This document shows positions 4,066 to 49,651 of a stretch of DNA of 64,000 nt, in pieces; the first letter of the stretch is position 1, and each line of letters opens with the position of its first letter. A program made the translations under genes and the position numbers. The stretch comes from Terriglobia bacterium (lineage in GTDB: Bacteria > Acidobacteriota > Terriglobia > 20CM-2-55-15), in NCBI GenBank assembly GCA_965262675.1, contig OZ253554.1, positions 3,220,640-3,284,639 of the forward strand. The letters are read 5' to 3'. Below the pieces are notes generated by a model. It did not search any database and was not told the origin of the DNA. It saw nothing but the letters and a program-made list of their open reading frames with translations.

Positions 4066-5106
4066 ATGTCACCCACGACTGCTTCGCCACCGAAGACGAA
4101 TCGGATCGGCCTCGCCATCAACCAGTACAAGGGCGGCGACTCGACTCTATGCGCGGGCTGCGGTCACGATGCGATTACCAGCCAACTGATCCGGGCTTTC
4201 TGGGAGTACGGGGTCGAACCCCATCGTGTCGCCAAACTCAGCGGCATCGGATGCTCAAGCAAGACTCCGGCGTATTTCCTGAACCAGTCCCACGGGTTCA
4301 ACAGTGTTCATGGACGTATGCCTGCCGTCGGAACCGGCGCGATGCTGGCCAACAAGGATCTGATCGCGGTGGGCGTGAGCGGCGACGGCGACAGCGCCTC
4401 GATTGGTCTGGGACAGTTTTGTCATCTGCTGCGCCGCAACGTTCCGATGATCTACATCGTTGAAAACAACGGCGTCTATGGCCTCACGAAGGGTCAGTTT
4501 TCGGCAACAGCCGATTACGGATCGAGATCCAAGGGCGGGACGTTGAATAACCTGCCCGCAATCGACGTCTGCGCCCTTGCCATCCAGATGGGGTGCAATT
4601 TTGTCGCGCGCTCCTTTGCCGGCGACCCCAGGCAACTCGTCGCCCTGATCAAGGCGGCAATCAGCCACCGCGGCACCGTCCTTCTGGATGTGGTCAGCCC
4701 TTGTGTCACGTTCAACAACCATGAGGGATCGACCAAGAGCTATCCGTTCGCGAAACAACACGAAGAACTGCTGCACGAAATCTCATACGTGCCTTTTTTC
4801 GAGCAGATCGAAGTGGACTACGACGAAGGAACGGTGGCAAACGTCAAGCTGCATGACGGTTCGCATCTGAAGTTGCGCAAGGCCGACCGAAGCTACGACC
4901 CCACCAACAAGGCCGAAGCGCTGCAAATGCTGATCCAGACCAATACCGACGAGGAGCTTCTGACCGGGTTGATTTACGTCAGGGAAAACCAACCGGACTT
5001 CCTGTCCACGCTCGATCTCTGCGACAAGCCGCTGGCGCACCTGGGCCCGAAAGATATCGTCCCCAGTGCGGACGTTCTCCGCGAAGTCATGGAATCGCTG
5101 ATGTAG
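4066..5106 (+). CDS. korB: 2-oxoacid:ferredoxin oxidoreductase beta subunit (TPP-binding, KorB-like)
   Basis: TPP-binding motif region GDGDSASIGLGQFCHLLRRNVPMIYIVENNGVYGLTKGQ. ATG at 4066 sits immediately after the korA TAG, which fits translational coupling. Confidence 0.9.
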   Translation: MSPTTASPPKTNRIGLAINQYKGGDSTLCAGCGHDAITSQLIRAFWEYGVEPHRVAKLSGIGCSSKTPAYFLNQSHGFNSVHGRMPAVGTGAMLANKDLIAVGVSGDGDSASIGLGQFCHLLRRNVPMIYIVENNGVYGLTKGQFSATADYGSRSKGGTLNNLPAIDVCALAIQMGCNFVARSFAGDPRQLVALIKAAISHRGTVLLDVVSPCVTFNNHEGSTKSYPFAKQHEELLHEISYVPFFEQIEVDYDEGTVANVKLHDGSHLKLRKADRSYDPTNKAEALQMLIQTNTDEELLTGLIYVRENQPDFLSTLDLCDKPLAHLGPKDIVPSADVLREVMESLM

Positions 5107-5154
5107 TCCCTGGACCAGGCGCGCAACCCTCCGACGGATCTATTACGAGATGAA

Positions 5155-5546
5155 CCGGTTCGATGGGCAGGATCGACCGCGCAATCAACTGTGCGTTTCC
5201 CCAGAATGTGCCGGTCGATGGGCAGGATCGACCGCGCAATCAACTGTGCGTTTCCCCAGAATGTGCCGGTCGATGGGCAGGATCGACCGCGCAATCAACT
5301 GTGCGTTTCCCCAGAATGTGCCGGTCGATGGGCAGGATCGACCGCGCAATCAACTGTACGTTTCCCCAGAATGTGCCGGTCGATGGGCAGGATCGACCGC
5401 GCAATCAACTGTACGTTTCCCCAGAATGTGCCGGTCGATGGGCAGGATCGACCGCGCAATCAACTGTGCGTTTCCCCAGAATGTGCCGGTCGATGGGCAG
5501 TGTCGAGCGCGAATTTAACCGTGTATTTCCGCCCCCCATTCCACCA
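5155..5546. repeat. 55-bp perfect tandem direct repeat array, 6 full copies (5162, 5217, 5272, 5327, 5382, 5437) plus a degenerate seventh
   Basis: Unit GATGGGCAGGATCGACCGCGCAATCAACTGTGCGTTTCCCCAGAATGTGCCGGTC repeats head-to-tail with period 55. Copies 4-5 carry a single G>A variant (tgtacg). There are no spacers and no forward-frame stop codons. The array sits in the korB 3' intergenic region. Confidence 0.9.
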
Positions 5547-5793
5547 ATGTCTTCTCGGTGACTTCTCCGCGGCATCGCGGGCACCGGGCCGGTTCCGAAA
5601 GGATGTAGTCCACGTCGGATCCGTCACTCCCGGTCACTTCGTCCAGGAGCCAGTCGAACGGCGTTTCGGCCTCGGAAGAGCAGAATTCGCAGGCGAGGAT
5701 CAGGGATTGGGCGCGGTAGGCGGTTGACTGAGACAGAGCAAGGACCCGGGACATGCGAGGGTCGATGCACCCGCGAATCCAATCCTCAAACAC
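5515..5793 (-). CDS. Small hypothetical protein with CxxC...CPRC zinc-ribbon-like Cys pairs
   Basis: 92-aa ORF with two Cys pairs (CEFC and CPRCRGE). Coding status not independently supported. Confidence 0.35.
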   Translation of the reverse strand: MFEDWIRGCIDPRMSRVLALSQSTAYRAQSLILACEFCSSEAETPFDWLLDEVTGSDGSDVDYILSEPARCPRCRGEVTEKTLVEWGAEIHG

Positions 5794-5983
5794 TGTCGAA
5801 TCAATCGATTAGGGCTTCGAGTATTCGGGATTGTCACAGAAATCGCGCCATAACGGTCACGTTTTTCCGTCGCGGTTCATCCGCCCCGGTCGTCGGCCGG
5901 GCACAGCAGCATCCGCCAAAGCCGCTACGGACGAATGTTGGCAGATGTGGTAAATTACAGGTTTCACCTACTAAGGTTATTCC

Positions 5984-6895
5984 ATGCGTAACGTCATCAT
6001 CATTGGATCTGGCCCGGCCGGACTGACAGCGGCTGTATATGCCGCCCGAGCCAGTCTGAAACCCCTTTTGATCGAAGGTGCGGAACCTGGCGGGCAACTC
6101 ACGCTCACAACCATGGTTGAAAACTATCCCGGCTTTCCGGAAGGAATCATGGGACCGCAACTCATGGAGGACATGAAGAAGCAGGCCGAACGGTTCGGCA
6201 CCGAATTTCTTACGGGCTATGTCGACCGTGTGGAACTGGACGCAAGCCCGTTCCGGATCTTTGTCGACGAACAGAAATTCGAAGCCCGAACCGTGATCAT
6301 CTCGACCGGTTCTTCGGCAAAGCTGTTGGGTCTCGATAACGAGCGTCGTTTGATGGGCCATGGCGTATCCACCTGCGCCACCTGCGATGGGTTCTTCTTC
6401 AGAGGCAAGAAGATAGCAGTCATCGGCGGCGGCGACTCGGCGATGGAAGAGTCGACGTTTCTGACCAAATTCGCCACCGATGTCCAACTCATTCACCGCC
6501 GGGATGCCTTCAGGGCCTCGACGATCATGGCCGAGCGTGCACTGTCGAACGAGAAAATCAACGTGCACTACAGCACCGTGGTCGAAGACGTACTTGGAGA
6601 TAACGAAGTCACCGGAATCCGGATACGGAACAACAAGGCTGACAAGACTCGGGAGATCGATCTCGACGGTGTTTTCGTGGCGATCGGGCACAACCCGAAT
6701 ACCGGAATTTTAAGGGGATATGTCGACCTGGACGAGAAGGGCTACGTGAAGACCGTTCCAGGCTCGACTGCGACGAACATCCCGGGCGTATTTGCTTGCG
6801 GTGACGTTCAGGATCCCGTATTCAAGCAGGCGGTGACTGCCGCGGGGACCGGATGCATGGCCGCCCTGGAAGCTGAAAAATTTCTGGAACACTGA
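5984..6895 (+). CDS. trxB: Thioredoxin-disulfide reductase
   Basis: N-terminal FAD GxGxxG motif (IIGSGPAGLTAAVYAAR), redox-active CATCDGFFF motif, second NADPH GGGDSAMEE motif. Length 303 aa is typical. Confidence 0.95.
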   Translation: MRNVIIIGSGPAGLTAAVYAARASLKPLLIEGAEPGGQLTLTTMVENYPGFPEGIMGPQLMEDMKKQAERFGTEFLTGYVDRVELDASPFRIFVDEQKFEARTVIISTGSSAKLLGLDNERRLMGHGVSTCATCDGFFFRGKKIAVIGGGDSAMEESTFLTKFATDVQLIHRRDAFRASTIMAERALSNEKINVHYSTVVEDVLGDNEVTGIRIRNNKADKTREIDLDGVFVAIGHNPNTGILRGYVDLDEKGYVKTVPGSTATNIPGVFACGDVQDPVFKQAVTAAGTGCMAALEAEKFLEH

Positions 6896-7322: not shown

Positions 7323-7703
7323 ATGACCGGGCAATCCGACAGGGTTTTCGTTTCCGAGATCGAATGTGCTTCCGCCATCGGCGTCACGGACGAAGAGCGT
7401 GCCGCGCCCCAGCGCTTGTCCATCGATGTCGAGGTCATGACCGACCTGCGCGCCGCAGCTGCCAGCGATGACGTTGCCGATTCCGTGGATTACGGGCAAA
7501 TCGTCCGAATGGTGGCGGACATGGCCGGCAATCGGGAGTACCGCTTGTTGGAATCTCTGGCCGAGCGCATTGCCGGTGGCGTTCTCACTGTACTGGGCGG
7601 CGATTCCGTCCGGGTTCTCGTGCGAAAACTGTCGGCCCCGATACCGACGCCGCTGAAATTTGTATCGGTGGAAGTCGTGCGGCAGAGCAAGAATCGAGCG
7701 TAA
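7323..7703 (+). CDS. folB: Dihydroneopterin aldolase
   Basis: Approximately 120-aa FolB-like pattern: IGVTDEER, QRLSIDVEV, ASDDVADSVDYGQIV, YRLLESLAERIA. Confidence 0.8.
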   Translation: MTGQSDRVFVSEIECASAIGVTDEERAAPQRLSIDVEVMTDLRAAAASDDVADSVDYGQIVRMVADMAGNREYRLLESLAERIAGGVLTVLGGDSVRVLVRKLSAPIPTPLKFVSVEVVRQSKNRA

Positions 7704-7921
7704 CCGATTCTGAACGAAAGCCGCTTGGGCCCATATTTCTATTGAAGAACCCGAAAAAGCTGCGCTATTCTACGTCCCACCTATATGACAGCTCGGCAAA
7801 CTGTACCTGTCAGACTGAAAACGGAAATCTTAATCAAATCTGACCGGTTTCAATCGACCGGAAAGCGCTTTCAAGACTACTGTTCAGGCGGAGAGAAGCG
7901 CGCGTTCCCAAGGAGGCACCT

Positions 7922-10018
7922 TTGGCACCCTTAACCAAGCAACAATCAGTCGGTACCCGGGCAATGAAGTTTGTGGACGCCGCTGTCTGCTATTCGGCGG
8001 GAAAGACCCTTGACACGATTCAATACGTGGCGAAGTATGACGTGAAGGCCTCATTCACTCCGAAATGGGCCGAAAAACCCCTCCAGAAGTCATGGCAGAA
8101 GACCAAACCTGCTCTGGGGTGGCCACGGCAAACCGACTCGCTCTGTCCGAAGTGCGTACTGGAAGCCCGCGAAGCGATCATCAACGGCACGCAGGACTGG
8201 ACAACGCTGCTCCACGAAAAAGTCGGCGAAGTGAAAGCCGACATTATCGAGCGCGACGGGCAGGTGTGGATGGTCAAGGATTGCCCGCTCCACGGTAAGG
8301 TCGAAGACATGATGGCGGTGGATGTCCGCTTCCTGGAATGGATCGAAAAGAATTTCCCGGGACGGGACATGCCGTCGCACAACGACGAAGACCTCCACAA
8401 TCATGGCTCGAGCACGATCAAGCATGGGCGGGGCTCGGTGCTGACCGTCGATCTCACGAACCGCTGCAACATGATGTGCGATCCGTGTTTCATGGACGCC
8501 AATCAAGTCGGTTACGTGCATGAACTGACATGGGACGACGTCAAGGAAATCATGGACAACGCGATGGAAATCAAGCCGCGTCGTCAGATGTCGATCCAGT
8601 TCTCCGGCGGCGAACCGACGATGTCTCCGTTTTTCCTGGATGCCGTCAGTTACGCCCGGAAGTTGGGTTTTTCAAGTACGCAAGCCGCGAGCAACGGTAT
8701 CGAGTTCGCCAAGAGCAAGGAGTTCTGCCGCCAAGCGGCGGAAGCCGGTCTGCGGTTCGTCTACCTGCAGTTCGACGGCGTCGGAAACGATGCCAACAGC
8801 CACCGCCAGGTGGGCAACCTGTTCGATGTGAAACTTCGGGCAATCAACAACCTGCACGAAGCTGGCGTGGAGATCATCCTGGTGGTGACGCTGGTCAACG
8901 GCGTCAACAACGATCAGGTGGGTTCCATTCTGCGTTTCGCGATGGACAACCCCAAGAAGATCGCGTTCATCGCGTTCCAACCCGTCTCGTTCACGGGGCG
9001 TGACGAAGAGGTGACCCCCGAACGGCGTTTGCGGCAACGGTATACGCTGTCGCATCTGGCGCATGACGTGAAACAGCAGGTCGGTATCACCGAACCCACA
9101 CGCGACTGGTTTCCCCTGTCCCTGATGGGCTCCTTTGCCGACTTTGCCGACCTCGCTCATGGCCCGGGCCGCGAATGGGGGCAGGTCAGTTGCGGTTGCC
9201 ACCCGAACTGCGGTGTCGGTACGGCGCTGATGATCAACAAGGAAACCAAGGAGATGGCACCCGTCCCGCAGTTCCTGAATATCCCGGGACTGGTCTCCGA
9301 CATGCAGAAAATCACGGACATGGGCCGTGGCAAATGGATGTCCAACGGTCTGATGGGACTGGCGCTGCTGAAGCACTACAACCCCCACAAGGCGCCCGGC
9401 GGCCTCACATTGTCCGCCCTGTTCAAGAAGTTCGACAAATCGTTCGGTCTGACCGGAAGAAACTATGGTTCCATCGATGGAAATTCCCGTTTGGATGACG
9501 TCGAGAAACGTCGTTCAGACCCCTGGAACTTCCTTTTCGTTGCGGGCATGTGGTTCCAGGATCTGTTCAACTATGACTTCCGCCGCACCGAGATGTGCAT
9601 CATTCCGTACGCGACACAGTTGGGAGAGATCTCCTTCTGTGCGTACAACACCGGAATCGGCTGGCGGAACATCATCGAAAACATGTTCAAGACCCACACG
9701 GTCGCCGAATGGTATCGGGAGCATGGAAAGCACGGCGTCTATGCGGGCGGCAAGAACGTTGAACTTGAAACCACCGAACACAGCCTCAAGATTCGCGCCG
9801 AGGATGCAAACCGGGTCCGCGACCGCGGCGAACTTCCCATGACGGCTGCCGATGAAGAAAAGCAACGCCGGCAGGCCGAGCGTGAAGCGCAAAAAGCCCG
9901 GGAGATCTACGAAGAGATGGTGATGGGCAAACGCCCGAGCAAGATGGATCTGATCAAGATCGAAGTCCTGAACCGCAGGGAAGAAGATAAAGAAGAGGCC
10001 CTTTCCGCCAGCAAGTAG
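7922..10018 (+). CDS. Radical SAM protein with N-terminal rubredoxin-like Cys motif; possibly Tes/GDGT-MAS-like membrane-spanning lipid synthase family
   Basis: CX3CX2C radical SAM motif (CNMMCDPC), SAM-binding GGEPT (QFSGGEPT), N-terminal CPKC...CPLHG motif, C-terminal CGCHPNC motif. TTG start with an AAGGAGG Shine-Dalgarno 5 nt upstream. The family call rests on architecture only. Confidence 0.75.
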   Translation: MAPLTKQQSVGTRAMKFVDAAVCYSAGKTLDTIQYVAKYDVKASFTPKWAEKPLQKSWQKTKPALGWPRQTDSLCPKCVLEAREAIINGTQDWTTLLHEKVGEVKADIIERDGQVWMVKDCPLHGKVEDMMAVDVRFLEWIEKNFPGRDMPSHNDEDLHNHGSSTIKHGRGSVLTVDLTNRCNMMCDPCFMDANQVGYVHELTWDDVKEIMDNAMEIKPRRQMSIQFSGGEPTMSPFFLDAVSYARKLGFSSTQAASNGIEFAKSKEFCRQAAEAGLRFVYLQFDGVGNDANSHRQVGNLFDVKLRAINNLHEAGVEIILVVTLVNGVNNDQVGSILRFAMDNPKKIAFIAFQPVSFTGRDEEVTPERRLRQRYTLSHLAHDVKQQVGITEPTRDWFPLSLMGSFADFADLAHGPGREWGQVSCGCHPNCGVGTALMINKETKEMAPVPQFLNIPGLVSDMQKITDMGRGKWMSNGLMGLALLKHYNPHKAPGGLTLSALFKKFDKSFGLTGRNYGSIDGNSRLDDVEKRRSDPWNFLFVAGMWFQDLFNYDFRRTEMCIIPYATQLGEISFCAYNTGIGWRNIIENMFKTHTVAEWYREHGKHGVYAGGKNVELETTEHSLKIRAEDANRVRDRGELPMTAADEEKQRRQAEREAQKAREIYEEMVMGKRPSKMDLIKIEVLNRREEDKEEALSASK

Positions 10019-10551: not shown

Positions 10552-10947
10552 TCATGGCGTTTCGATAGACGATCCCGCGAACAGGCGCCGACCATCCTGG
10601 GTAATAACCCGGGCATTGCAGGTATCGGTTCCATCGTGAGCGCGGAAACCCTCGATCTGCACGTCATCTCCGGTCTTCAGCGTTTCGCTGGTCCACCCAA
10701 GACGGCGTAACGAATTGGGCGTCCCGCCCTCGCACTGCCAGTTCTCGACATCCCCATCCGCATTTCTGACATCCAGATAGAACCAGATATGCGGATTGGT
10801 CCACTCCACCTTCGTGATCTCTCCATCGAGTTCAACGGATTGGTCGGAATCGAAGACCGCCGCAAACGAGTGATGGGCCAACGCCGCGGCCGGTAGTAAC
10901 AGGGCGACTGTACAAAGTGTCAGTATTGCTTTCATCATTCCTTTCAT
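10552..10947 (-). CDS. Small secreted protein, paralog family B (mature N-terminus HHSFAAVFD)
   Basis: Signal peptide ends ...AAALA, then HHSFAAVFD, followed by W.NPH and DGRRLFAGSS motifs. Paralogous to 26764..27186 and 35796..36221. GGAGG Shine-Dalgarno 5 nt upstream of ATG 10947. Confidence 0.7.
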   Translation of the reverse strand: MKGMMKAILTLCTVALLLPAAALAHHSFAAVFDSDQSVELDGEITKVEWTNPHIWFYLDVRNADGDVENWQCEGGTPNSLRRLGWTSETLKTGDDVQIEGFRAHDGTDTCNARVITQDGRRLFAGSSIETP

Positions 10948-11109
10948 CCGGGCCTCCGACCGGCTGAATGTTTCTTCCACCGCAGTGGACGGACCGGCCA
11001 GAACGGATGGTACAAGTGGCCGTTGAAGAGGTCAAGGAAAAGGCTGAAATACGTCCCTCCTGAACATCTTGGAGAGCCAATCCGATGCAACGTCTCTTGA
11101 CACCCGCTC

Positions 11110-27245: not shown

Positions 27246-28976
27246 TTATTCCGGCAACGCGAACACGTAGATCTCATTGTGGCCGCTTGGCGGATTGACG
27301 CCCGCGCCCCGTGCCAGGGCACCGCCCTTGTCGCCTGTTGTGACCGCGACATATTGCGTACCGTCCACGGCATAGGTGATGGTGCTGATCGAAATCGGCC
27401 CGCCCAGGACGGATTCCCAGAGCTGTTCCCCCGTATCCACATCATAGGCACGGAAACGGCGGTTCACGTCGCCGTGAAATACGACGCCGCCTGCCGTCGC
27501 GAGAGTGGATCCCGTGCTGGGAATGGCACTGACCCCGAAGCGCATGATTTCGCCCGTATCCAGATTCACCTTCGCGACACCTGCGAACTCGTCGGGATTC
27601 CCTTCGGGACGTGCCTCGCCGAACCGCCGTTCGCGGTTGTCACCGTCGGCTCGAGTCATGTTGAGGCAGTTGTCGACATAGGGAATGTATAGCGAATTTG
27701 TGCCGGGGTGGAACGAAGACGGCCAGAAACTGGTCGTGTTGAAGAAGCAGATCAGATGGTTTTCGCCCGGTTCCTTCAGGACGAGGTCCCAGTTGAGCTC
27801 GGTCCGGCCCGTGGCGCCATCGATGTTCGAAATCAGGAATCGTTCGGTGTCGAACGGAAACGGCGTGGCCCAGAGGAACTCGCCCGTTCGGCGGTCGTTC
27901 ACAAATATACCTCCGCCCTCTCCCACCATTACCGTGGCGTCGCGTTCCTCGCCGCGAGGAACGTTCGGATTGAACCACTTGACGTATTCCGGCTCGGGGT
28001 TGAAACGGATCGTGGTCAAGATCCGTTCGTTGGTGTAGTCCTCGTCCCAGTCGTCCCCGGGAAGGTGTTGGAAATACCATTTCAACTCACCGGTGTCCGG
28101 GTCCAGCGCCAGCGTGGAGTTACTGTACAGATCCGAAGGCGACGTGCGCGGAATCGTGTCGACTTCGCCGTCATGACGCGCCGCCCGCGTGTTTGGCATC
28201 GGATTGGCGACGCCCCACAGCACGGTATTGGTTTCGGGGTCGTAGGATCCGGGCAGGCCCCAGGTCGATGCCATGTTCCTGTCGTGCGTTTCAGGAGACG
28301 GGTTGCCCCAGGTTTCGTATCCTGGCTCGCCCGGACCGGGAACCGTAAAAAACTTCCACAGTTCCTCGCCGGTTTCGATGTCGTGGGCAGCGATGAAGCA
28401 GCTCTCGCGGGTCCGTGCGCATGCGCGTCCGGAAATCACCTTGCCGTTGACGGCCACGGGGCCGGAAGTGTGGTCGGCTTCACCGGCATAGGTCTGCCAC
28501 CGGACCTCGCCATTGACCGCGTCCAGAGCGACAATGTAGCCGTCGGGCGCCGTGTATAAGATCACGTCGCCATAGATCGCCAGGGTCTTGGTTCGTGCCC
28601 GCCCGGCGGCATCGCCCGCATCGTGGCGATATTCCCACAAGCTGTCGCCGTTGGTGGCATCGACCGCGCGCACGACGGCGCCGGGCTCGACGATATACAT
28701 CACGCCGTCGTGGACTATCGGAATCGCTTCGGCGCTGCCATTGTTCATTCCCCGAGACCAGGCCAGGGTGAGCCCCTCGACATTGTCCCTGTCGATCTGT
28801 TCCAGCGGGCTGAACCGTTGCGCATCGTAGGTGCGACTGAACATGAGCCAGTCGTCGGGACTCGGGTTCTGGAGCATCGCGTCGGAAACCGGCTGGTAGT
28901 CCGGAACCTGAGCGATGGCGGAAGGAACGAACAACAGGAACAATGAAATAGCGGTCAAGTGTCGAGTGAGTCTCAT
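27246..28976 (-). CDS. PQQ-dependent alcohol dehydrogenase-type quinoprotein (8-bladed propeller)
   Basis: Signal peptide. Tryptophan docking repeats and overall similarity to the methanol/ethanol dehydrogenase family. Trimmed to ATG 28976, which has a GGAGG Shine-Dalgarno. Confidence 0.85.
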   Translation of the reverse strand: MRLTRHLTAISLFLLFVPSAIAQVPDYQPVSDAMLQNPSPDDWLMFSRTYDAQRFSPLEQIDRDNVEGLTLAWSRGMNNGSAEAIPIVHDGVMYIVEPGAVVRAVDATNGDSLWEYRHDAGDAAGRARTKTLAIYGDVILYTAPDGYIVALDAVNGEVRWQTYAGEADHTSGPVAVNGKVISGRACARTRESCFIAAHDIETGEELWKFFTVPGPGEPGYETWGNPSPETHDRNMASTWGLPGSYDPETNTVLWGVANPMPNTRAARHDGEVDTIPRTSPSDLYSNSTLALDPDTGELKWYFQHLPGDDWDEDYTNERILTTIRFNPEPEYVKWFNPNVPRGEERDATVMVGEGGGIFVNDRRTGEFLWATPFPFDTERFLISNIDGATGRTELNWDLVLKEPGENHLICFFNTTSFWPSSFHPGTNSLYIPYVDNCLNMTRADGDNRERRFGEARPEGNPDEFAGVAKVNLDTGEIMRFGVSAIPSTGSTLATAGGVVFHGDVNRRFRAYDVDTGEQLWESVLGGPISISTITYAVDGTQYVAVTTGDKGGALARGAGVNPPSGHNEIYVFALPE

Positions 28977-29256
28977 GGACCCTCCTGAAAGAGTGCGAGC
29001 CGATCGCCGATCGATCGTCCGGCCTGAAATTCCTGTTTGACAATCGGTTTCCCGACAACGATACAGATTGCGGTCCAGGGAGTCGATCTCTCGATCCGGT
29101 TTTTCGTCTCGGCCGGTTGAGCGTTCCGGCGAGACTTTCTGGTTTGCCAGGTTCACTCGCCCGCGGACGGAGGTGCCGTCTTGTTCACGCACGCGATGGC
29201 CGGCCTGCTGGCGTTCGGCATGCTCGGCCAGATGGGGTAACGCGTCTCTCGGGCCG

Positions 29257-30552
29257 CTACTGATCTTCTTCGTCGAACTCTTCTTCTCCCAGGCGGAAAG
29301 CCTGGGCCAGTTCCGGGTCGTCGTCGATCCCTAGCGCACGCCGAGCGATGTACTCCCCGATTACCGGTCCCGACTTGAAGGCCTCGGCCGAACCGCCTCC
29401 GGCCAGCCAGACGTTGTCGAAGTCGGGGTGTTGATCGATGATGAAGTTGCGGGTCACGCTGAACTCGTAGTGGCAGGACCGCGTTTCGTTGATTGCGGCG
29501 CCCACGAGATCGGGGAAATGCCGTTCCAGAATCTGACGCGGCTGATCGTGATACCGGGAATCGATCCATCGATCGCTCACGTCGGGGTCGGCGGGCGGGC
29601 GGCCGCCCGTTCGTACGCGGAAACCCCTGTAATCGGGTCCCAGCGCGGGCCAGCCCGTAACCCCGGGGATGCCATAGCTGGGCATGTTGGGGTAGACCCA
29701 CCGCGGGTCTCCGGGCGGCGTGGCGAAGTAGTAGACATGGCCCATCGGAATGCGGATACGGCGTCCCATCAGTTCGGGAAACACTTTGGGAAACCAGGGG
29801 CCGCAAGCGAAAACGAACGTCGACGATGCGATCGAATCCCCGGTTTCGAGCGTGACCGTTTGAAGAGCGCCGCCGGACCGGCTGCCGACGGAAGCGCGGC
29901 CCAAGACCAGCGCGCCGCCCTCCTGTAGAAACACCTGGGCCACGGATTCGATCGCACGGCGCGCCCGGACCACACCCGCGCCGGGTTCGTAGAGAGCGGC
30001 CCCGAGGTTTTCGAACCGGATCCAGGGCCACCGATTAGTGACTTCGTCAGGGCTCAGGAACTCGTAGGGAATCCCCAGGGCGTCCCAGTTTGCGGCGGAC
30101 CGCTCCAGATAGGGGATCATCTCCTCACGAAGGATCAGGTCTCCGGTGTTGTAGAACAACGGCGGCAGGAGCCGGTCGGTGTTTTCCTCGTCCCAGTCTC
30201 TCCAGCGCCGGATCGACTCGACGGCCCAGCGTGTCCAGAGCAGTCCGTGCGCCTCGTCGCCGTATGCGCTGCGGACGCCGCGGGTTTCCCCTCCCGAACT
30301 GGACCTGGAGTTTGCCGGCCCATACGGGTCGACCACGGTGACCGACGCGCCGAGGCGGAGCAGGTGGAGCGCCGTCCACATCCCGAACGAGCCCGCGCCG
30401 ACAACGACCACATCGGGAGAGCCGGCCTGGGGTTTGCCGACGGATGTGAGGCTGAACGTTCCCCGCGCGGCACCCGGAGCCGCGAGGCCGAGAGCCGCTG
30501 TCTTGAGGAAGGTCCGACGGTGGAGCGACGCCTCTTTTCTTCTGGAAGTCAT
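29257..30552 (-). CDS. FAD-dependent oxidoreductase (DAO/sarcosine-oxidase-like), Tat-exported
   Basis: Tat motif HRRTFLKTAALGLAA followed by the VVVVGAGSFGMW Rossmann motif. Track ORF 29257..31341 trimmed to the internal ATG. Confidence 0.8.
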   Translation of the reverse strand: MTSRRKEASLHRRTFLKTAALGLAAPGAARGTFSLTSVGKPQAGSPDVVVVGAGSFGMWTALHLLRLGASVTVVDPYGPANSRSSSGGETRGVRSAYGDEAHGLLWTRWAVESIRRWRDWDEENTDRLLPPLFYNTGDLILREEMIPYLERSAANWDALGIPYEFLSPDEVTNRWPWIRFENLGAALYEPGAGVVRARRAIESVAQVFLQEGGALVLGRASVGSRSGGALQTVTLETGDSIASSTFVFACGPWFPKVFPELMGRRIRIPMGHVYYFATPPGDPRWVYPNMPSYGIPGVTGWPALGPDYRGFRVRTGGRPPADPDVSDRWIDSRYHDQPRQILERHFPDLVGAAINETRSCHYEFSVTRNFIIDQHPDFDNVWLAGGGSAEAFKSGPVIGEYIARRALGIDDDPELAQAFRLGEEEFDEEDQ

Positions 30553-30752
30553 TCCCCACCCCCGCCGATCAAACCCGTCGTATACGCCTTGCCCGGGGGG
30601 ATCTGGATGGGGGCGAGGTCGTTCACGTTGTGCTCGTTGATCTCGGTCCAGTTGATGTAGCTGTTTATACCGGCTCCCGGCCACCCGTGCAAAAAAAGCG
30701 CATCCGATGACGGCCGCCCCGCACGCGGACAGAGGCTGGAACCCCGTTTTTT

Positions 30753-32735
30753 TCAGGGAAGCGCCATCGCCGTCAGCGTGCTTCCGGTTTGAAGCATCAC
30801 ATACTGTTTGCCATCGTAAACGTACGTCATCATACCGTAACGACTGCCGGCCGGAACATCCACCGTACCCACGCGCTCTCCCGTCGCCTTGTCGACCGCA
30901 TAGAGGCGTGGGGAACCGTCGCCCGCGGCGCCGGCATAGATCAGCAACGTTTCGGTCACGGTCATCGGCGCGACGTTGCCCGAGCCCGTGTTCGGGATGT
31001 CCATTCCCTGTAAGTCGGGATGATTCGCGACGCGGTCGGGCGTATCGCCGACCGGAATCCACCAGAGGTGATCCCCGGTGTTCATGTCGATTGCCGTGAT
31101 CCGGCTGTAGGGTGGCTTGTACAGAGGCAAACCGTCGGGTCCGCGAGCCGCCGCGCTTCCCCCCACCGCGAAATCGGCGATCGTCGTGCCGGTGGGTGCG
31201 TCCTCGCGTGCATCGCGCTCGGCGCCTGGGACAATGATCCGCGAGGTGCATGCCTTGCGCGAGGTCACGTACAGGATTCCCGTTGCGGGATCGGCGGCCG
31301 CCGGCCCGTCGATGTTCACGCCGCCGACATCTCCGGGACACCAGAGCGCCCCGCGCTTGTCGAGGTCGTTATCCCGATGAAGCGGGGGATTGAACAAGGG
31401 GCCGATCTGGAACGGCTCGAGCGCTTGGAGCGCCCGCTCCCTCAACTCGGGAGTGAAATCGATCAGGTCGTCGACCGTGAGCCCTTGCATATCGTACGGC
31501 GCCGGGCGGGTCGGGAAAGGCTGGGTCGGGGACAGTTGTTCGCTTGGAACGAGCGATGCCGGGACCGGGCGCTCCTCGATCGGCCAGAGGGGCTCCCCGG
31601 TCTCGCGGTGGAACGCGTACGCGAAGGCCTGCTTCGTCACCTGCACGACGGCGGGAACCTCTTCCCCGTCGACGGTCACGTCGAGCAGCACGGGCGCCGT
31701 CGGTGTGTCGTAATTCCAGATGTCGTGATGCACGAGTTGGTAGTGCCAGGCTCGCTCTCCGGTCTGCACGTCCAGTGCGATCAGGCTGGTGCTGAACAGG
31801 TTGTCCCCGGGCCGGAACCCCCCGTAGAAGTCGATCGTGGCCCCGTTGGTCGGAATGTAGACGATGCCCCGCTCCGGGTCCGCCGCCATCGGCGCCCATG
31901 ACGACACGTCGCCGGTCCATTCCCATGCGTCGTTTTCCCACGTTTCGTGACCGAACTCGCCGGGGCGGGGAATGACGTTGAACTTCCACAGGAATTCTCC
32001 CGTCCGGGCGTCGTAGGCCAGAATGTCTCCCGGAATATTCTCGATGCGCGACTGGTTGTAGCCTTGTTCCGCCGAATTGCCCACGATCACGACATCGTTG
32101 ATGACGATGGGCGGGGACGACGCGGTGATGTAGCCGACTTCCAGCGGGATACCGTCATAGACATCGTACTCGTGGCCCAGATCGGCGAGCAGGTCGACCG
32201 AGCCGGTCGGCCCGAACCCGTCAATCGGAACGGACCCGCCGAAGCCTTCCAGAGGCTGGCCCGTCCCGGCGTCCAGGGCATGGAGGAAGAACGCCGGTGT
32301 CGTGATGTACACGACGCCGCGGCCGTCGATCTCCGCGTATGCGACGCCCTTTCCGTAGTCCTGCCGCATGGAGTATTCCCACCGGCCGGTGTTGGGCTCG
32401 CGGAACGACCAGAGCGTCTCTCCGCTTGCGGCATCGAGTGCGACGACGTGGCGGCGTGGACCGGCGACCGTATACAGCTTGCCGTCGGCGTAGACCGGGG
32501 TCGAGCGCCCGCTGGCGGCGTCAAAGCTGGCGCCGTCCCAGACCCATGCTTCCTGAAGGTTCTCGAAGTTGGAAGCGTCAATCTGGTCGGCCGGAGAGTA
32601 TCGCGTGTGCCGGGCATCGCCTCCGACGAAGCGCCACTGGCCGTCTTCGGTCCCGGTCTGCGCTCCGAGCAGGGCGGGGGTCCACAGGATGCCGGCGGCA
32701 ATGAGCGCCGTTGCGTATCGTCCGGGTAGGATCAT
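30753..32735 (-). CDS. PQQ-dependent dehydrogenase (quinoprotein), secreted
   Basis: Signal peptide MILPGRYATALIAAGILWTPALLGAQ. PQQ propeller repeats (for example AxDxxTGExLW ...). Trimmed from 33308 to ATG 32735, which has an AAGGAGAG Shine-Dalgarno. Confidence 0.85.
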   Translation of the reverse strand: MILPGRYATALIAAGILWTPALLGAQTGTEDGQWRFVGGDARHTRYSPADQIDASNFENLQEAWVWDGASFDAASGRSTPVYADGKLYTVAGPRRHVVALDAASGETLWSFREPNTGRWEYSMRQDYGKGVAYAEIDGRGVVYITTPAFFLHALDAGTGQPLEGFGGSVPIDGFGPTGSVDLLADLGHEYDVYDGIPLEVGYITASSPPIVINDVVIVGNSAEQGYNQSRIENIPGDILAYDARTGEFLWKFNVIPRPGEFGHETWENDAWEWTGDVSSWAPMAADPERGIVYIPTNGATIDFYGGFRPGDNLFSTSLIALDVQTGERAWHYQLVHHDIWNYDTPTAPVLLDVTVDGEEVPAVVQVTKQAFAYAFHRETGEPLWPIEERPVPASLVPSEQLSPTQPFPTRPAPYDMQGLTVDDLIDFTPELRERALQALEPFQIGPLFNPPLHRDNDLDKRGALWCPGDVGGVNIDGPAAADPATGILYVTSRKACTSRIIVPGAERDAREDAPTGTTIADFAVGGSAAARGPDGLPLYKPPYSRITAIDMNTGDHLWWIPVGDTPDRVANHPDLQGMDIPNTGSGNVAPMTVTETLLIYAGAAGDGSPRLYAVDKATGERVGTVDVPAGSRYGMMTYVYDGKQYVMLQTGSTLTAMALP

Positions 32736-33115
32736 GGCTGGGTCTCTCCTTATCGGGCGGCGCCGTTGGCCGCCACGCTTCCGCATTGTCACCGGGATCG
32801 GCTCGGTTGTCGACAAGGATCGTCCGGTCGGGCGCTCACAGGGCGTGGACGACACGGGCGCGATATTTTCGACCCGCCCTGACTCGTCGGCATGACATTC
32901 CAGACAAATGTCGCCGAAGTCATTCACGTCGTCGCAGGTACAGTCCTGGTACATCCGAGGGCCGCGATTCGCGCTTACGTTGGATGCGCAGAGCAGTTCT
33001 ACGGGCAGCTGGGCGACGCTGATGCCAACTGCAAACCGAAGGAACAGAGCCGACGTTGTCGCCGCTGATGTGGCGGTTTCCTCAAACAGATCGATTCGGC
33101 GCCGAAGCCATCTTC

Positions 33116-33146
33116 TTGACTGTATGGCCGTTGCCAACCTATATAT
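33116..33146 (+). promoter_or_regulatory. Sigma70-like promoter for the family A gene at 33205
   Basis: TTGACT (33116), 18-nt spacer, TATATA (33140), in a 470-bp divergent intergenic region. Confidence 0.35.
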
Positions 33147-33204
33147 GAACCTGCGAATCGCCGGGTACCGAGTCGACGTATCGAGCCAAGGGGAGATCGA
33201 CCAC

Positions 33205-34035
33205 ATGAAAGACGGGTTGCGTGGTGGAATCATGGTCCTGGCCGTGGCGGCGGCGATCGTCTCGATAGGGGTGGGAACCACAGCCGCACAGTCGGCGGGC
33301 TCGGACATTCAACGTGCCTGGGACGGCAACCCCGATCTGAACGGGATCTGGCAGGCAATCGGTACCGCACATTGGGACATCCAGGATCATGCGGCCGCCG
33401 CGGGGCTGCCCGAAATGGGAGCGATCGGTGCGATTCCTCCGGGCCAGGGCGTAGTGGACGGCAACGAAATCCCGTATCGGGAATGGGCTCTCGAACAAAG
33501 GCGACAGAATTTCGAGAACCGCTTCACCGAGGATCCCGAGATCAAGTGCTACATGCCGGGCGTCCCACGCTCGACCTATCTCCCGTATCCATTCCAGATC
33601 GTCCAGGGAACCGGCAAGATGATGATGGTCTACGGGTTTGCCGAAACCAATCGCACCATTCACATGGACAAGGAAAACCCTGAGCCCGCGCCTATCGACA
33701 GTTGGATGGGGCGGTCCCACGGGCAATGGGAAGGCGACACGCTCGTCGTGGATGTCGCCGGTTTCAATGGGCAGTCGTGGTTCGACCGGGCAGGTAACTT
33801 TGCCAGCAGCACGTTGCACGTGGTCGAGCGGTATACCCCGATGGGCGCCAATGCAATCATGTACGAGGCCGTCATCGAAGATCCGAACGTGTTCACACGC
33901 CCATGGACCATGCGGATGCCCCTGTATCGACGTCTGGAAGACAACATCCAGATCCTGGAATTCAAGTGCGTCGAATTCTCCGAAGAACTTCTTTATGGCC
34001 ATCTGCGCCGGCAATCGCCAGACCGAGACCAGTAA
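33205..34035 (+). CDS. Secreted protein, paralog family A
   Basis: PDLNGIWQ, CYMPGVPRS, WEGDTLVVDVAGFN and EFKCVEFS motifs. AAGGGGAG Shine-Dalgarno. Confidence 0.75.
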   Translation: MKDGLRGGIMVLAVAAAIVSIGVGTTAAQSAGSDIQRAWDGNPDLNGIWQAIGTAHWDIQDHAAAAGLPEMGAIGAIPPGQGVVDGNEIPYREWALEQRRQNFENRFTEDPEIKCYMPGVPRSTYLPYPFQIVQGTGKMMMVYGFAETNRTIHMDKENPEPAPIDSWMGRSHGQWEGDTLVVDVAGFNGQSWFDRAGNFASSTLHVVERYTPMGANAIMYEAVIEDPNVFTRPWTMRMPLYRRLEDNIQILEFKCVEFSEELLYGHLRRQSPDRDQ

Positions 34036-35795: not shown

Positions 35796-36221
35796 ATGCG
35801 AACGACTCTTGCCGTCATTCTGGCCTCTGCTCTCATCCTTACGGGCACCGCCCCGTTGATGGCGCACCATGCGTTTTCCGCGGAGTTCGATTCCACCAAG
35901 CCTGTCCGAATACGTGGCAAGATCACGCGCATGGAATGGATCAATCCCCATGCCTGGATGCACCTCGACGTGACACAGGATGACGGCACGGTAGAAAGCT
36001 GGATGATCGAGGCCGGCCCCCCGGGCGCGCTTGTCCGCAGGGGATGGAACAGGGATTCGGTGGTTGTCGGCACGGAGGTGCTGGTGGAAGGCTATCGGGC
36101 TCTGGACGGGTCGAACCGGGCCAACGGCCGCGATGTGACGTTCCCGGACGGCCGCCGGTTGTTCGCGGGATCCTCCGGCACGGGCGCGCCAATCGATGGG
36201 ACCGACCCCACCGAGCGGTAG
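35796..36221 (+). CDS. Small secreted protein, paralog family B (mature N-terminus HHAFSAEFD)
   Basis: Signal ...APLMA, then HHAFSAEFD; WINPHAWMH; DGRRLFAGSS. Confidence 0.75.
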   Translation: MRTTLAVILASALILTGTAPLMAHHAFSAEFDSTKPVRIRGKITRMEWINPHAWMHLDVTQDDGTVESWMIEAGPPGALVRRGWNRDSVVVGTEVLVEGYRALDGSNRANGRDVTFPDGRRLFAGSSGTGAPIDGTDPTER

Positions 36222-46632: not shown

Positions 46633-49581
46633 TCAATCCTCAAAGGCCGACCGTTCCATCACATCGACCCGAACCTCCGGCGCATCAGGCACTTTGCCGC
46701 CACGCGCCTCGGTCATCGTGCTGCGGTAGAGATCTTGCACATCACGCTCGGTGGCGGTGGTCGGCGCAAGCACGCGGCGGTTCATCGCCCGTTTCCGTTC
46801 CATCAGGCTGTCGAGCTTCAAATCGAAGCTGTATTCGCCGAAACGCGGGTGCCGTGCCAACGGCAGGTAGACGTGCACGGTCCGGCGTTGTCCGATACGG
46901 AAGACGCGATCGGTGCACTGATCCTCCACGGCCGGATTCCACCACCGCGAAAGATGAATGACGTGGTTCGCCGCCGTCAGCGTCAGACCGACGCCGCCGG
47001 CACGAGGCGACAGGAGCATAACGTCAAAACCCATACGGTCCTGGAACATGTCGACGCGCGCCTTGCGCCTTCCACCGGAGACCGCGCCGTTGATGACGAG
47101 CACATCCTCGCGAAGCCGAAAGCGGTGTCTGAGCGCGCCGATCAGGAAGTCCTGCATTTTGAGCGACTCGACGAAGATCAACACTTTCTCGCCTTGGTCG
47201 GCGACCCCCTCCAGAATCGCGAATGTCTCGGATAACCGCGCCGATTCCCGTATGTACTGATCGACGCTGCGATCGCCCGGCACCGCGGGATGCAGGGAGG
47301 TATTTCGAAGTTTCTGGAGCGTCTGAAGCACACCGCCATCCTGTCGGCCGCGCAGCACGATCTCCGCGTACGCCTCGGCCTGGAACGGCGGCATCTCAAC
47401 CACGCGCCGGTGCACCCGCTTCTCCGGCAGCGTCGCGAGATGGTCTTCCTTGAGCCGGCGCAACATCAGCGCAGGACCCGTCGACTCCGCCGGCTTCGTC
47501 AGCGTGCGATGCAAATCCTCGAGTATCGCGTGGCCTTCCGCGTCTCGTCTTTCGTATCTCCCGCTGAAATCCTTCAGGGTTCCGAACATCCCGGGTTCGG
47601 TCCGGTCCAGCAACGACCAGATATCCGCCGGGCGATTCTCCACGGGCGTGCCGGTCATCAGCAGGGCAAAGTCGACGTTCATGGCAAGCGCCGCGTCCGT
47701 CAGGCGAGCGTTCGGGTTTTTGATTTTCTGGGCTTCGTCAAACACACCGGCGCGCCAGTGGATACGTCCGAAACTGTGCTGATAGTCGCGAAGAGTTTCG
47801 TAGGTGGTCAGCACCCAGTGGGCATCCTTCAGTAGAGCAATGTCCAGGAGCGGTTGTCCGAAAGCGAGATCGTCGCCACGATCCGCCGCGTGTTTCTTTC
47901 GGAGACGCCGCAATTCGCCGCCATGCGCTTCAACGGCCCGGCCGAGTCCTTCTCCGGCGAGATGTTTCGCATGTTCGTCCTTCCAGTTCTTGAGCAATCC
48001 GGTCGGAGCGACAACGAGCGTGGGCTGTTGCGGCAACCCCTCGTTTACGGAATGCGTCTTCAGGCAGGAAAGAAAAGCCAATGCTTCGAGCGTCTTGCCG
48101 AGTCCCATGTCGTCGGCAAGCAGGGCACCCCAACTGCCGGCTTCCCATCTGGTTTCGAGCCAGGCAAGACCCTCCTGTTGGTGGGGAAGAAGTTCGGTCC
48201 GCAAGCCGGGCTTGGACGTCGAAATGCCGGGCCGGCGCCGCTTCCGCTCACGGGTGAACCGAACGGTTTCCAGGTTGTCGATAACGATCAAGATCTGATC
48301 GTCATCGTCGCGTCCGACGGGTGCTTTGTCCGGTTCGGTGCTCGTCCTCGGACGCTGGGCTGACTGATGCCTGCGGATCAGTGCCTCGACGGCGCTGATT
48401 GTGGCCGAATTCGCCGGGATATCGGCGCCGCTATCGGTCCGCACGGTCGGTTCGCCACGCTCGACCGCGCTCTGGATTCGTTCGAGCAGGCCGGACAGGT
48501 CGTCGGGAGACAGCGGCACCATCTGCGAACCGATGCGAAGTCCCGATTCGTCTGGAGGCAACCACGGTTCCGCGGCGTGCCGGATCCACGGAACCGTCTT
48601 GTCGACCCAGATGCCGACGCCGCTGACACGGTCGCTCAATCCGTCATCGCTGAAGACGCTGTCGAGTTCAAACTCGTGCGTGTCGAATGCGCCGCGCAGG
48701 TAGCCCGAAGCGTTCCGCAGGAAATCTCGACGCTCATCGGGCGTGCCCGACTGTGCGCGTTGCACGATGGCGAGAGCCTGTTGGACCTCCGGCGTAAGCA
48801 CGACAAAGGCCCCGCCCCCGGCCGGGTATCGATGCCTGACGCCGGACAGGGCGCGGAAGCGCCGTGCGAAATCCTGCTGGCGGGCCTCTGGCAGCGTGCG
48901 GTCGAACGCTTGCTCGTGATCACCCACATCGGTCGCGCGAGTCGCCCGCCTGCCGACGACCGGGTCGAAGTCCGGTTCGCCGTCCTCGTTCACAAACGGA
49001 TCCAGCTCGAAGCTCGAAGCTACGACGATCTTCAGCGAACGCAGATTGTCGTCACCGACAACGGCGTCGGCCGGCAACATCTCGGCGATCCGTCCCCATC
49101 GAAGCATTCGCGATTCCAGATCCGCCTCGTCCGCCCGGTTGAACAGGTCGATGGCATCGGCGATGGAGTACAGAGGATCGAGCAGCACGAAGTCGCCGCC
49201 GCCCGCATGCAGCCATGCCCCCTCACGTCGCGTGCCGAGGACGCGCCGTCCGTTGCGGAGAAAGCCGTAACGGATCTGGAAGTCGGCGTCGTGTATGGCG
49301 TTGTTCGCGACGACCTCGATCGCGAACGGCGATGCATCGGGAAGCCCGATGTACCGCAGTTCGCCGGGGGTCAATCCGGCGACGCTCGGCCAGGAAACCG
49401 ACAATGAACAACCATCGTCCTTCTCGACGGCGCCGCCGTCATCCCGAAGTCGAATCAGCGCGCCCACGCCGGCCGATCCGTCGGCGATCGATGTCCACTC
49501 GCGGACGGAAACCGGTGGATCGCCCTGCATCCGGACGATCAAGCCGTCCGGCGTCGGCTTGAACCTGAGGCTGTTAGTCAT
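46633..49581 (-). CDS. zorD: SNF2-family helicase with large N-terminal domain (ZorD-like)
   Basis: SNF2_N motifs (LLADDMGLGKT, DEAQKIKN) and helicase-C motifs (RAGGVGLTLTAANHVIHLSRWWNPAVEDQCTDRVFRIGQ). Preceded by ~470 aa of unknown function. Last gene of the zorABCD-like operon. Confidence 0.75.
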   Translation of the reverse strand: MTNSLRFKPTPDGLIVRMQGDPPVSVREWTSIADGSAGVGALIRLRDDGGAVEKDDGCSLSVSWPSVAGLTPGELRYIGLPDASPFAIEVVANNAIHDADFQIRYGFLRNGRRVLGTRREGAWLHAGGGDFVLLDPLYSIADAIDLFNRADEADLESRMLRWGRIAEMLPADAVVGDDNLRSLKIVVASSFELDPFVNEDGEPDFDPVVGRRATRATDVGDHEQAFDRTLPEARQQDFARRFRALSGVRHRYPAGGGAFVVLTPEVQQALAIVQRAQSGTPDERRDFLRNASGYLRGAFDTHEFELDSVFSDDGLSDRVSGVGIWVDKTVPWIRHAAEPWLPPDESGLRIGSQMVPLSPDDLSGLLERIQSAVERGEPTVRTDSGADIPANSATISAVEALIRRHQSAQRPRTSTEPDKAPVGRDDDDQILIVIDNLETVRFTRERKRRRPGISTSKPGLRTELLPHQQEGLAWLETRWEAGSWGALLADDMGLGKTLEALAFLSCLKTHSVNEGLPQQPTLVVAPTGLLKNWKDEHAKHLAGEGLGRAVEAHGGELRRLRKKHAADRGDDLAFGQPLLDIALLKDAHWVLTTYETLRDYQHSFGRIHWRAGVFDEAQKIKNPNARLTDAALAMNVDFALLMTGTPVENRPADIWSLLDRTEPGMFGTLKDFSGRYERRDAEGHAILEDLHRTLTKPAESTGPALMLRRLKEDHLATLPEKRVHRRVVEMPPFQAEAYAEIVLRGRQDGGVLQTLQKLRNTSLHPAVPGDRSVDQYIRESARLSETFAILEGVADQGEKVLIFVESLKMQDFLIGALRHRFRLREDVLVINGAVSGGRRKARVDMFQDRMGFDVMLLSPRAGGVGLTLTAANHVIHLSRWWNPAVEDQCTDRVFRIGQRRTVHVYLPLARHPRFGEYSFDLKLDSLMERKRAMNRRVLAPTTATERDVQDLYRSTMTEARGGKVPDAPEVRVDVMERSAFED

Positions 49582-49651
49582 GGAATCACCACACGGAACG
49601 GGATTAATTCACCCGCCGGACCCGGCGGCGGCACCGTCGAGCGGGACGCGG

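Follow-up and report, generated by a model that had tools for sequence, protein, structure and literature searches.

The closest relative of solved structure to the enzyme analyzed here is GDGT-MAS of M. jannaschii, the archaeal tetraether synthase (Tes) MJ0619. The enzyme in question is a protein of 698 residues from the radical S-adenosylmethionine (SAM) superfamily, encoded in a 64,000-nucleotide stretch of DNA from a Terriglobia bacterium (GenBank assembly GCA_965262675.1, contig OZ253554.1, positions 3,220,640 to 3,284,639; hereafter, the window). In Lloyd et al. (PMC9433317), MJ0619 is described with four metal centres: a rubredoxin-like iron in the motif C9X2C12X20C33X2H36, an N-terminal auxiliary [4Fe-4S] cluster held by C73, C77, C80, and a histidine, the radical SAM cluster, and a C-terminal auxiliary [4Fe-4S] cluster with a labile Met439 beside Tyr459. 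The roles of the remaining metallocofactors are given there as not clear.

[quoted passage not shown] Zeng et al. (PMC8941075) reported 456 bacterial Tes homologues and proposed a role for them in brGDGT synthesis. Their top bacterial matches come from Koribacter and Solibacter (40–42% identity, E ~1e-140), while the single Tes homologue of E. aggregans, which makes iso-diabolic acid and brGDGT, has 32% identity and an E value of 4e-61 (PMC8941075). For S. usitatus, also a brGDGT producer, Halamka et al. listed two homologues: Acid_5929, with 545 residues (40%, 1e-139), and Acid_2410, with 714 residues (30%, 4e-62). For Acidobacteria, the foremost candidate enzymes are the bacterial homologues of Tes.

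Family, fold, and metal sites of the window protein

The gene occupies positions 7922–10018 on the forward strand and encodes the 698 residues stated in a reading of the window made from the sequence alone. Its open reading frame has a GC content at third codon positions of 0.74 and a homologue search returned more than 8000 relatives of its product, which together establish a real gene. The start codon is a TTG, with a Shine–Dalgarno sequence AAGGAGG (7910–7916, forward strand) read 5 nt before it, and the same AAGGAGG–TTG layout is present in the orthologous leaders of three related loci (L001, L002, and L003). Some public gene calls use the alternative ATG at Met15, which gives a protein of 684 residues.

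The best profile, the best solved structure, and the best fold match of the protein are all Tes/GDGT-MAS, in agreement with the family suggested by the sequence-only reading. The highest-scoring NCBIfam model is Tes (NF045702; 311.5 bits, E = 8.9e-93), which is covered from position 1 to 484 of 486. The best sequence match in the PDB is GDGT-MAS (7TOL; E = 2.2e-61), in an alignment that begins at residue 103; the identity to MJ0619 is 32% over 471 aligned positions. An AlphaFold model, built with 28 homologues as input, has a mean predicted local distance difference test score (pLDDT) of 83.9 and a predicted template modelling (TM) score of 0.85. Foldseek aligns this model to 7TOM/7TOL with a target-normalised TM score of 0.86 and an E value of 2e-36, and the next match after GDGT-MAS is MoaA, with an E value of 3e-9. 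The four-domain fold of GDGT-MAS is reproduced in the model, with the loop of the N-terminal cluster modelled at low confidence.

Pfam assigns PF23545 (Zn_ribbon_HMPTM) to residues 68–131 (E = 1.6e-12) and PF04055 (radical SAM) to residues 178–340 (E = 1.2e-17). A B12-binding domain of the type found in GrsA/B and the class B methylases is absent from the Pfam matches at E values up to 0.1, and no cobalamin-binding model occurs among the 25 best of 51 NCBIfam matches. Likewise, Pfam finds no SPASM or twitch domain in the protein, and NCBIfam models of SPASM families cover the radical SAM core only (residues ~173–380), with 29–80 bits against cutoffs of 265–650. The profile comparison for which the earlier reading had called is led by Tes, and not by the B12-binding or SPASM subgroups that it had named as contrary outcomes. 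No transmembrane segment was found in the protein. The gene is a bacterial relative of Tes/GDGT-MAS and not a canonical Tes; its product is best explained as a soluble or peripheral radical SAM protein of this family, belonging to a mostly acidobacterial long-form subfamily.

The rubredoxin-like zinc-ribbon domain (8132–8314, forward strand) is defined by PF23545 and by the alignment to MJ0619, and contains C75, C78, C121, and H124, all conserved across the family. C121 and H124 align with C33 and H36 of MJ0619, and the CPKC motif at residues 75–78 supplies the CX2C half by motif. The resulting pattern is CX2C-X42-CX2H, as compared with X20 in MJ0619, which corresponds to an insertion of 22 residues. 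The N-terminal CPKC and CPLHG (121–125) motifs had already been singled out from the sequence; the gap between them is 42 residues, not the 38 given then.

The radical SAM core (8438–9121, forward strand; PF04055) contains the CX3CX2C motif CNMMCDPC at residues 182–189 and the motif QFSGGEPT at residues 226–233, with GGE at 229–231, both as first described. C182, C186, and C189 align with C98, C102, and C105 of MJ0619. All nine residues that correspond to contacts with SAM or 5'-deoxyadenosine named by Lloyd et al. (PMC9433317) are the same as in MJ0619: G230, Y281, D285, V321, T323, Q353, S356, T358, and R360.

The C-terminal domain, which combines the auxiliary-cluster site and the lipid pocket, was delimited by alignment at 9122–9727 (forward strand). 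Here, C430, C559, C573, M543, and Y563 align with C338, C455, C470, M439, and Y459 of MJ0619. An alignment of 28 sequences from both clades described below shows no variation at C430, M543, C559, and C573, and a conservation of at least 90% at Y563. This invariance suggests that C430, C559, and C573 are the ligands of the C-terminal cluster. The CGCHPNC motif that had drawn attention to this region is present at residues 424–430, where only C430 matches a conserved cysteine of the C-terminal domain and C424 and C426 are additional; the invariant C559, C573, and Met543 had been overlooked.

The region between the zinc ribbon and the radical SAM core departs most clearly from MJ0619. In place of the N-terminal auxiliary [4Fe-4S] domain, the alignment places a linker (8315–8437, forward strand) with a His-rich segment, HNDEDLHNHGSSTIKHGRG, a pLDDT of 51–57, and no cysteine. 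The protein has 13 cysteines in total, none of them between residues 121 and 182, and C73, C77, and C80 of MJ0619 align with H159, S163, and a gap. Since the cysteines of the N-terminal cluster are missing, the protein can accommodate no more than two [4Fe-4S] clusters besides one mononuclear site, and the window enzyme probably has three metal centres rather than four, as judged from its sequence. The multi-cluster architecture put forward in the sequence-only reading holds for these other centres and fails for the N-terminal auxiliary cluster, and the score of the protein lies below the Tes cutoff.

Both termini extend beyond MJ0619. Residues 1–70 (7922–8131, forward strand), recognized from conservation and the AlphaFold model, include a predicted helix at 10–37 (pLDDT 84–92) and the conserved motif FTPKW..KPL.KSWQKTKP.LGWPR; across 120 homologues, residues 45–70 have a mean identity of 81% to the window protein. 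At the other end, a charged extension of residues 603–698 plus the stop codon (9728–10018, forward strand) was recognized from the model and from its composition, with predicted helices at 642–668 and 675–696, 21 Lys/Arg, and 22 Asp/Glu. Residues 603–675 are moderately conserved within the subfamily. Both extensions, like the 22-residue insertion in the zinc ribbon, are characteristic of the subfamily described next.

A long-form subfamily and its proposed reaction

An exhaustive HMMER search at E values up to 1e-30 yielded 535 clusters at 50% identity, whose full-length representatives form two clades. The group that includes MJ0619 keeps the CPxxCGxC motif and scores 474–638 bits on the Tes model, whereas the group of the window protein is without this motif and scores 251–414 bits. 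One representative, P0262, passes the Tes cutoff with 584 bits and yet is without the motif, so that not even every accepted Tes protein has the N-terminal cluster.

The subfamily of the window protein is very abundant and, among the matches listed, 70–78% identical across Terriglobia and Blastocatellia/Pyrinomonadaceae. The nearest relatives among these matches, at 76–78%, are from Solibacteraceae/Bryobacterales and a gp5 metagenome-assembled genome, and further members are found in metagenome-assembled genomes of Gemmatimonadota. The classes Terriglobia and Blastocatellia comprise subdivisions 1, 3, and 4, which are producers of iso-diabolic acid (PMC13274423). Names given to the subfamily in public databases are mixed: ‘radical SAM protein’, ‘7,8-dihydro-6-hydroxymethylpterin dimethyltransferase’, ‘uncharacterized radical SAM superfamily Fe-S cluster-containing enzyme’, and ‘tetraether lipid synthase’. 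The pterin name, although outdated, continues to spread in the public annotation.

By analogy with GDGT-MAS, we consider it probable that the window enzyme couples lipid tails, joining iso-C15 chains into membrane-spanning lipids based on iso-diabolic acid. What the computations show is the family, the fold, and that residues for catalysis and metal binding are conserved; substrate, product, and the cluster-adduct mechanism are inferred. In such a mechanism, the cluster bound by C182, C186, and C189 would bind SAM and cleave it reductively, and the resulting 5'-deoxyadenosyl radical would take a hydrogen atom from the terminal carbon of a lipid tail in a hydrophobic tunnel. The C-terminal auxiliary [4Fe-4S] cluster (C430, C559, and C573, with Met543 as the labile ligand) would then hold the substrate radical, parked on one of its sulfides. 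A second SAM cleavage would generate a radical on a second tail, and its attack on the parked carbon would form the Csp3–Csp3 bond. Likely substrates here would be the iso-C15 chains of glycerolipids, and the products either tetraesters based on iso-diabolic acid or, after ether formation, membrane-spanning lipids of the brGDGT type. In Sahonero-Canavesi et al. (PMC13159169), Mss, a separate and proven bacterial enzyme of the same type of coupling, has no homologues in the acidobacterial genomes screened, which counts in favor of a Tes-like enzyme in this role. The brGDGT producers S. usitatus and E. aggregans, each with a Tes homologue of long-form BLAST signature, count in its favor as well.

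Several observations weigh against this assignment. The window protein does not reach the equivalog cutoff of the Tes model (450 bits, against its 311.5), and the N-terminal auxiliary cluster's ligands are without counterpart across the whole subfamily, so that electron delivery may differ. Six Pfam and PADLOC scans found no lipid-biosynthesis gene in the 64-kb window, and clustering of neighbours in 81 related loci gave no conserved lipid neighbourhood. The grouping of the protein with Acid_2410 and the E. aggregans homologue is a putative one, drawn from length and BLAST statistics. In Sahonero-Canavesi et al. (PMC13159169), Tes homologues identified by stringent criteria occur in only 3 of 14 acidobacteria that make iso-diabolic acid. 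As of 2025, no bacterial Tes homologue had been experimentally confirmed for membrane-spanning lipids (PMC11868695). The later support by Chen et al. (2025), as summarized in a paper that cites it, is a co-occurrence: Tes and Ger homologues are found together with tetraester or brGDGT production in cultures.

A stringent BLAST or equivalog cutoff in gene surveys catches the archaeal-like form and overlooks the long form, which may explain both the 3-of-14 result and the reports that Tes is missing from most acidobacterial makers of iso-diabolic acid. A bolder proposal, which we regard as tentative and rather less than evenly balanced, is that the missing iso-diabolic acid synthase of the aerobic Acidobacteria (subdivisions 1, 3, and 4) is neither Mss nor the archaeal-like Tes but the long form, whose clade has no N-terminal cluster. 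The loss of this surface-exposed [4Fe-4S] cluster and the conserved terminal extensions would then be adaptations to oxygen exposure or to a different electron donor. If true, the subfamily would serve as a specific marker gene for the organisms that are the main source of brGDGT precursors in soil.

The coexistence of both forms in S. usitatus, which has the 545-residue archaeal-like homologue and the 714-residue long one, raises the alternative that the long form performs the same radical C–C coupling on hydrophobic chains in a role specialized with respect to its archaeal-like paralogue. It might, for instance, catalyze the second coupling only (trialkyl to dialkyl tetraether), act only on ester- or only on ether-linked lipids, or form a macrocyclic diester or another cross-link. 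The two types also differ in clade, cofactor set, and score on the Tes model, and in some lineages the long form adjoins a second radical SAM gene, a pairing similar to that in gms-tes clusters (PMC11214058). However, E. aggregans, with a single Tes homologue of long-form BLAST signature, makes iso-diabolic acid and brGDGT (Zeng et al.), and MJ0619 alone carries out both couplings (PMC9433317). Moreover, the catalytic residues are identical, and therefore nothing points to a different chemistry. We regard a specialized role as unlikely.

The missed Tes cutoff and the absence of lipid genes nearby would also fit a radical SAM enzyme that merely shares the Tes fold and whose substrate is not a lipid but, for example, a peptide or a cofactor. 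The second-best NCBIfam model is in fact TrsS (NF045646), a related family with a different assignment, at 209.9 bits. This score is far under the TrsS cutoff of 490, however, and the match covers only profile positions 13–296 of 441. By comparison, the whole C-terminal lipid-pocket domain aligns with GDGT-MAS, including the equivalents of Met439 and Tyr459, which lie beside the lipid terminus in MJ0619 and are invariant or nearly so here. The protein is also devoid of a SPASM or peptide-recognition domain, and none of the conserved neighbours in the 81 loci resembles a precursor peptide. A non-lipid substrate is very unlikely, and coupling of lipid tails is the reading that we retain.

Leader, neighbouring genes, and other features of the window

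The 218-bp leader (7704–7921) has the length originally reported and, at 49.5% GC, is AT-rich as compared with the window (60.5%). It contains a promoter-like block, TTGAAG (7742–7747)-N18-TATTCT (7766–7771), on the forward strand. Five orthologous leaders, from lineages down to 76% protein identity, have the block unchanged and diverge outside it. It matches the consensus at 8 of 12 positions, which is under the threshold of the promoter scan; its conservation suggests a dedicated tes promoter.

A palindrome in the leader had also been pointed out, as TGACAG-N16-CTGTCA at about 7790–7820. It exists as TGACAG-N15-CTGTCA at 7786–7812, the single occurrence in the window, and is unsupported as a regulatory site. 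Within 241 bp there are nine inverted repeats of 6 nt or more, the palindrome among them, where about one such repeat per region of this size is expected by chance according to our own estimate (200 positions × 21 spacings / 4096). Only a strain with 98% identity keeps the palindrome intact; it retains 4 of 6 positions in an 83% relative (L082) and is absent in L001, L002, and L003, with no compensating changes in the orthologous leaders. It is neither significant nor conserved, and we rejected it as an operator. A riboswitch or structured leader was rejected as well: there is no Rfam match at E values up to 1, and the folding energy relative to shuffled sequences (z = +0.48) indicates no excess structure.

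Directly upstream of the leader lies folB (7323–7703, forward strand), encoding dihydroneopterin aldolase (PF02152, E = 2e-29), as had been noted; it is not part of the proposed system. Adjacency of folB and tes is found in 4 of the 81 related loci (L001, L002, L003, and L081) and, when L082–L084 are added, folB is not beside tes in 77 of 84. The order trxB–DUF2203–folB–tes is kept in the closest clade (L001, L002, L003, L082, and L084), down to 76% protein identity. The adjacency is best explained as local, clade-specific synteny and does not amount to functional evidence. A folB–tes operon or a pterin link was rejected, given that only the closest clade has this synteny and that the promoter-like block lies between the two genes.

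The sequence-only reading had found the position after folB curious in view of the pterin history of MJ0619. As it had indicated, that history is one of mis-assignment, pterin methylation not being corroborated by Lloyd et al. (PMC9433317); the link drawn from the position of folB does not stand, for the two reasons just given. That the protein is, as in the old HMPTM assignment, a radical SAM methylase of pterin or folate metabolism acting with folB is scarcely credible: this reading has in its favor the same-strand folB 218 bp upstream, the gene order of the closest clade, and public annotations as 7,8-dihydro-6-hydroxymethylpterin dimethyltransferase, and against it the rarity of this adjacency among the 84 loci, the conserved promoter-like block, the spread of the family far beyond the expected methanopterin makers, and the hydrophobic tunnel with bound lipids seen by Lloyd et al., who call the annotation incorrect (PMC9433317).

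More generally, clustering of the neighbours of tes gave only lineage-specific housekeeping genes, the most widespread of which occurs in only 19 of the 81 loci. Judged by eye from their sequences, these neighbours resemble SurE, Pcm, DedA, phosphoglucomutase, and QueG. Lipid genes are likewise missing from the surroundings of the archaeal-like homologue P0193. In all six Gemmatimonadota loci (L011, at 8535–9785, and L021, L031, L034, L037, and L069), the long-form tes is directly preceded, on the same strand, by a radical SAM gene of ~400 codons whose product is Cys-rich at its C-terminus. Two further loci, L008 (Terriglobia; 4956–6587) and L035 (12202–13812), have a gene for a 543-residue radical SAM/SPASM protein just downstream of tes. 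These radical SAM neighbours may correspond to the bacterial gms-tes clusters of PMC11214058. In L082 (12336–14046), tes is followed by genes for PF01883 (FeS_assembly_P), PF01521 (Fe-S_biosyn), and ThiC; the downstream genes of the window differ, and the arrangement may be a coincidence.

Elsewhere in the window, a 55-bp tandem repeat (5155–5511; 6.5 copies, 98% matches) lies between the gene for the beta subunit of a 2-oxoacid:ferredoxin oxidoreductase and trxB. The open reading frames listed across it are repeat artefacts. L084, whose tes product is 98% identical, has no such repeat between these genes, and the repeat is therefore strain-specific.

PADLOC identified a complete type I Zorya anti-phage operon on the reverse strand (46633–53768). 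It consists of ZorA (52062–53768, E = 2e-44), ZorB (51154–52065, E = 1e-59), ZorC with the EH signature (49652–51157, E = 5e-114), and the SNF2 helicase ZorD (46633–49581, E = 8e-292).

A DUF6152 protein is encoded twice, at 10552–10980 (reverse strand, E = 7e-30) and at 35796–36221 (forward strand, E = 2e-32), the second copy downstream of two genes for pyrroloquinoline quinone-dependent dehydrogenases (27246–33308). Between 19222 and 24755 on the forward strand, a gene for a 591-residue ankyrin-repeat protein is followed by one for a PSD/PSCyt multidomain protein and one for a DUF1552 (HXXSHH) protein. The domains of the PSD/PSCyt protein are DUF1592/1588/1587/1585/1595, with an additional weak cytochrome c match below cutoff.

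Comparison with known systems

The window protein resembles MJ0619 in its fold (TM score 0.86), in the rubredoxin-like site, in the CX3CX2C and GGE motifs and the SAM contacts, in the three C-terminal cysteines with the accompanying Met and Tyr, and in having no transmembrane segment. It differs in the absence of the N-terminal [4Fe-4S] cysteines, in the X42 spacing in place of X20, in the N- and C-terminal extensions of ~70 and ~95 residues, and in the additional C424 and C426. The hosts differ too: that of the window protein is bacterial, with fatty-acid lipids as opposed to isoprenoid ones.

[quoted passage not shown] According to the literature, it is separate from Tes and restricted to anaerobes, and this published description sets it apart from the window protein.

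The archaeal-like bacterial Tes proteins (Acid_5929, and P0189 and P0193 in our set) share with the window protein the family, the domain order, the C-terminal cluster, and the Met and Tyr. Unlike the window protein, they keep CPxxCGxC, score 474–638 bits, have no long extensions, and fall in the clade of MJ0619.

The closest parallels are Acid_2410 (Q025C7) from Candidatus Solibacter usitatus and the homologue from Edaphobacter aggregans, which are like the window protein in length (~700 residues), in BLAST signature (30–32%, E ~1e-61), and in phylum. Both are uncharacterized and have already been proposed in the literature as candidate brGDGT/tetraether synthases. The window gene is a further member of this already noticed, uncharacterized acidobacterial Tes-like subgroup suspected of brGDGT synthesis. 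The new point is the split between an archaeal-like form with four metal centres and a form of ~700 residues with probably three, the latter highly conserved and abundant in soil metagenomes, and this split also guides the choice of paralogue for expression experiments.

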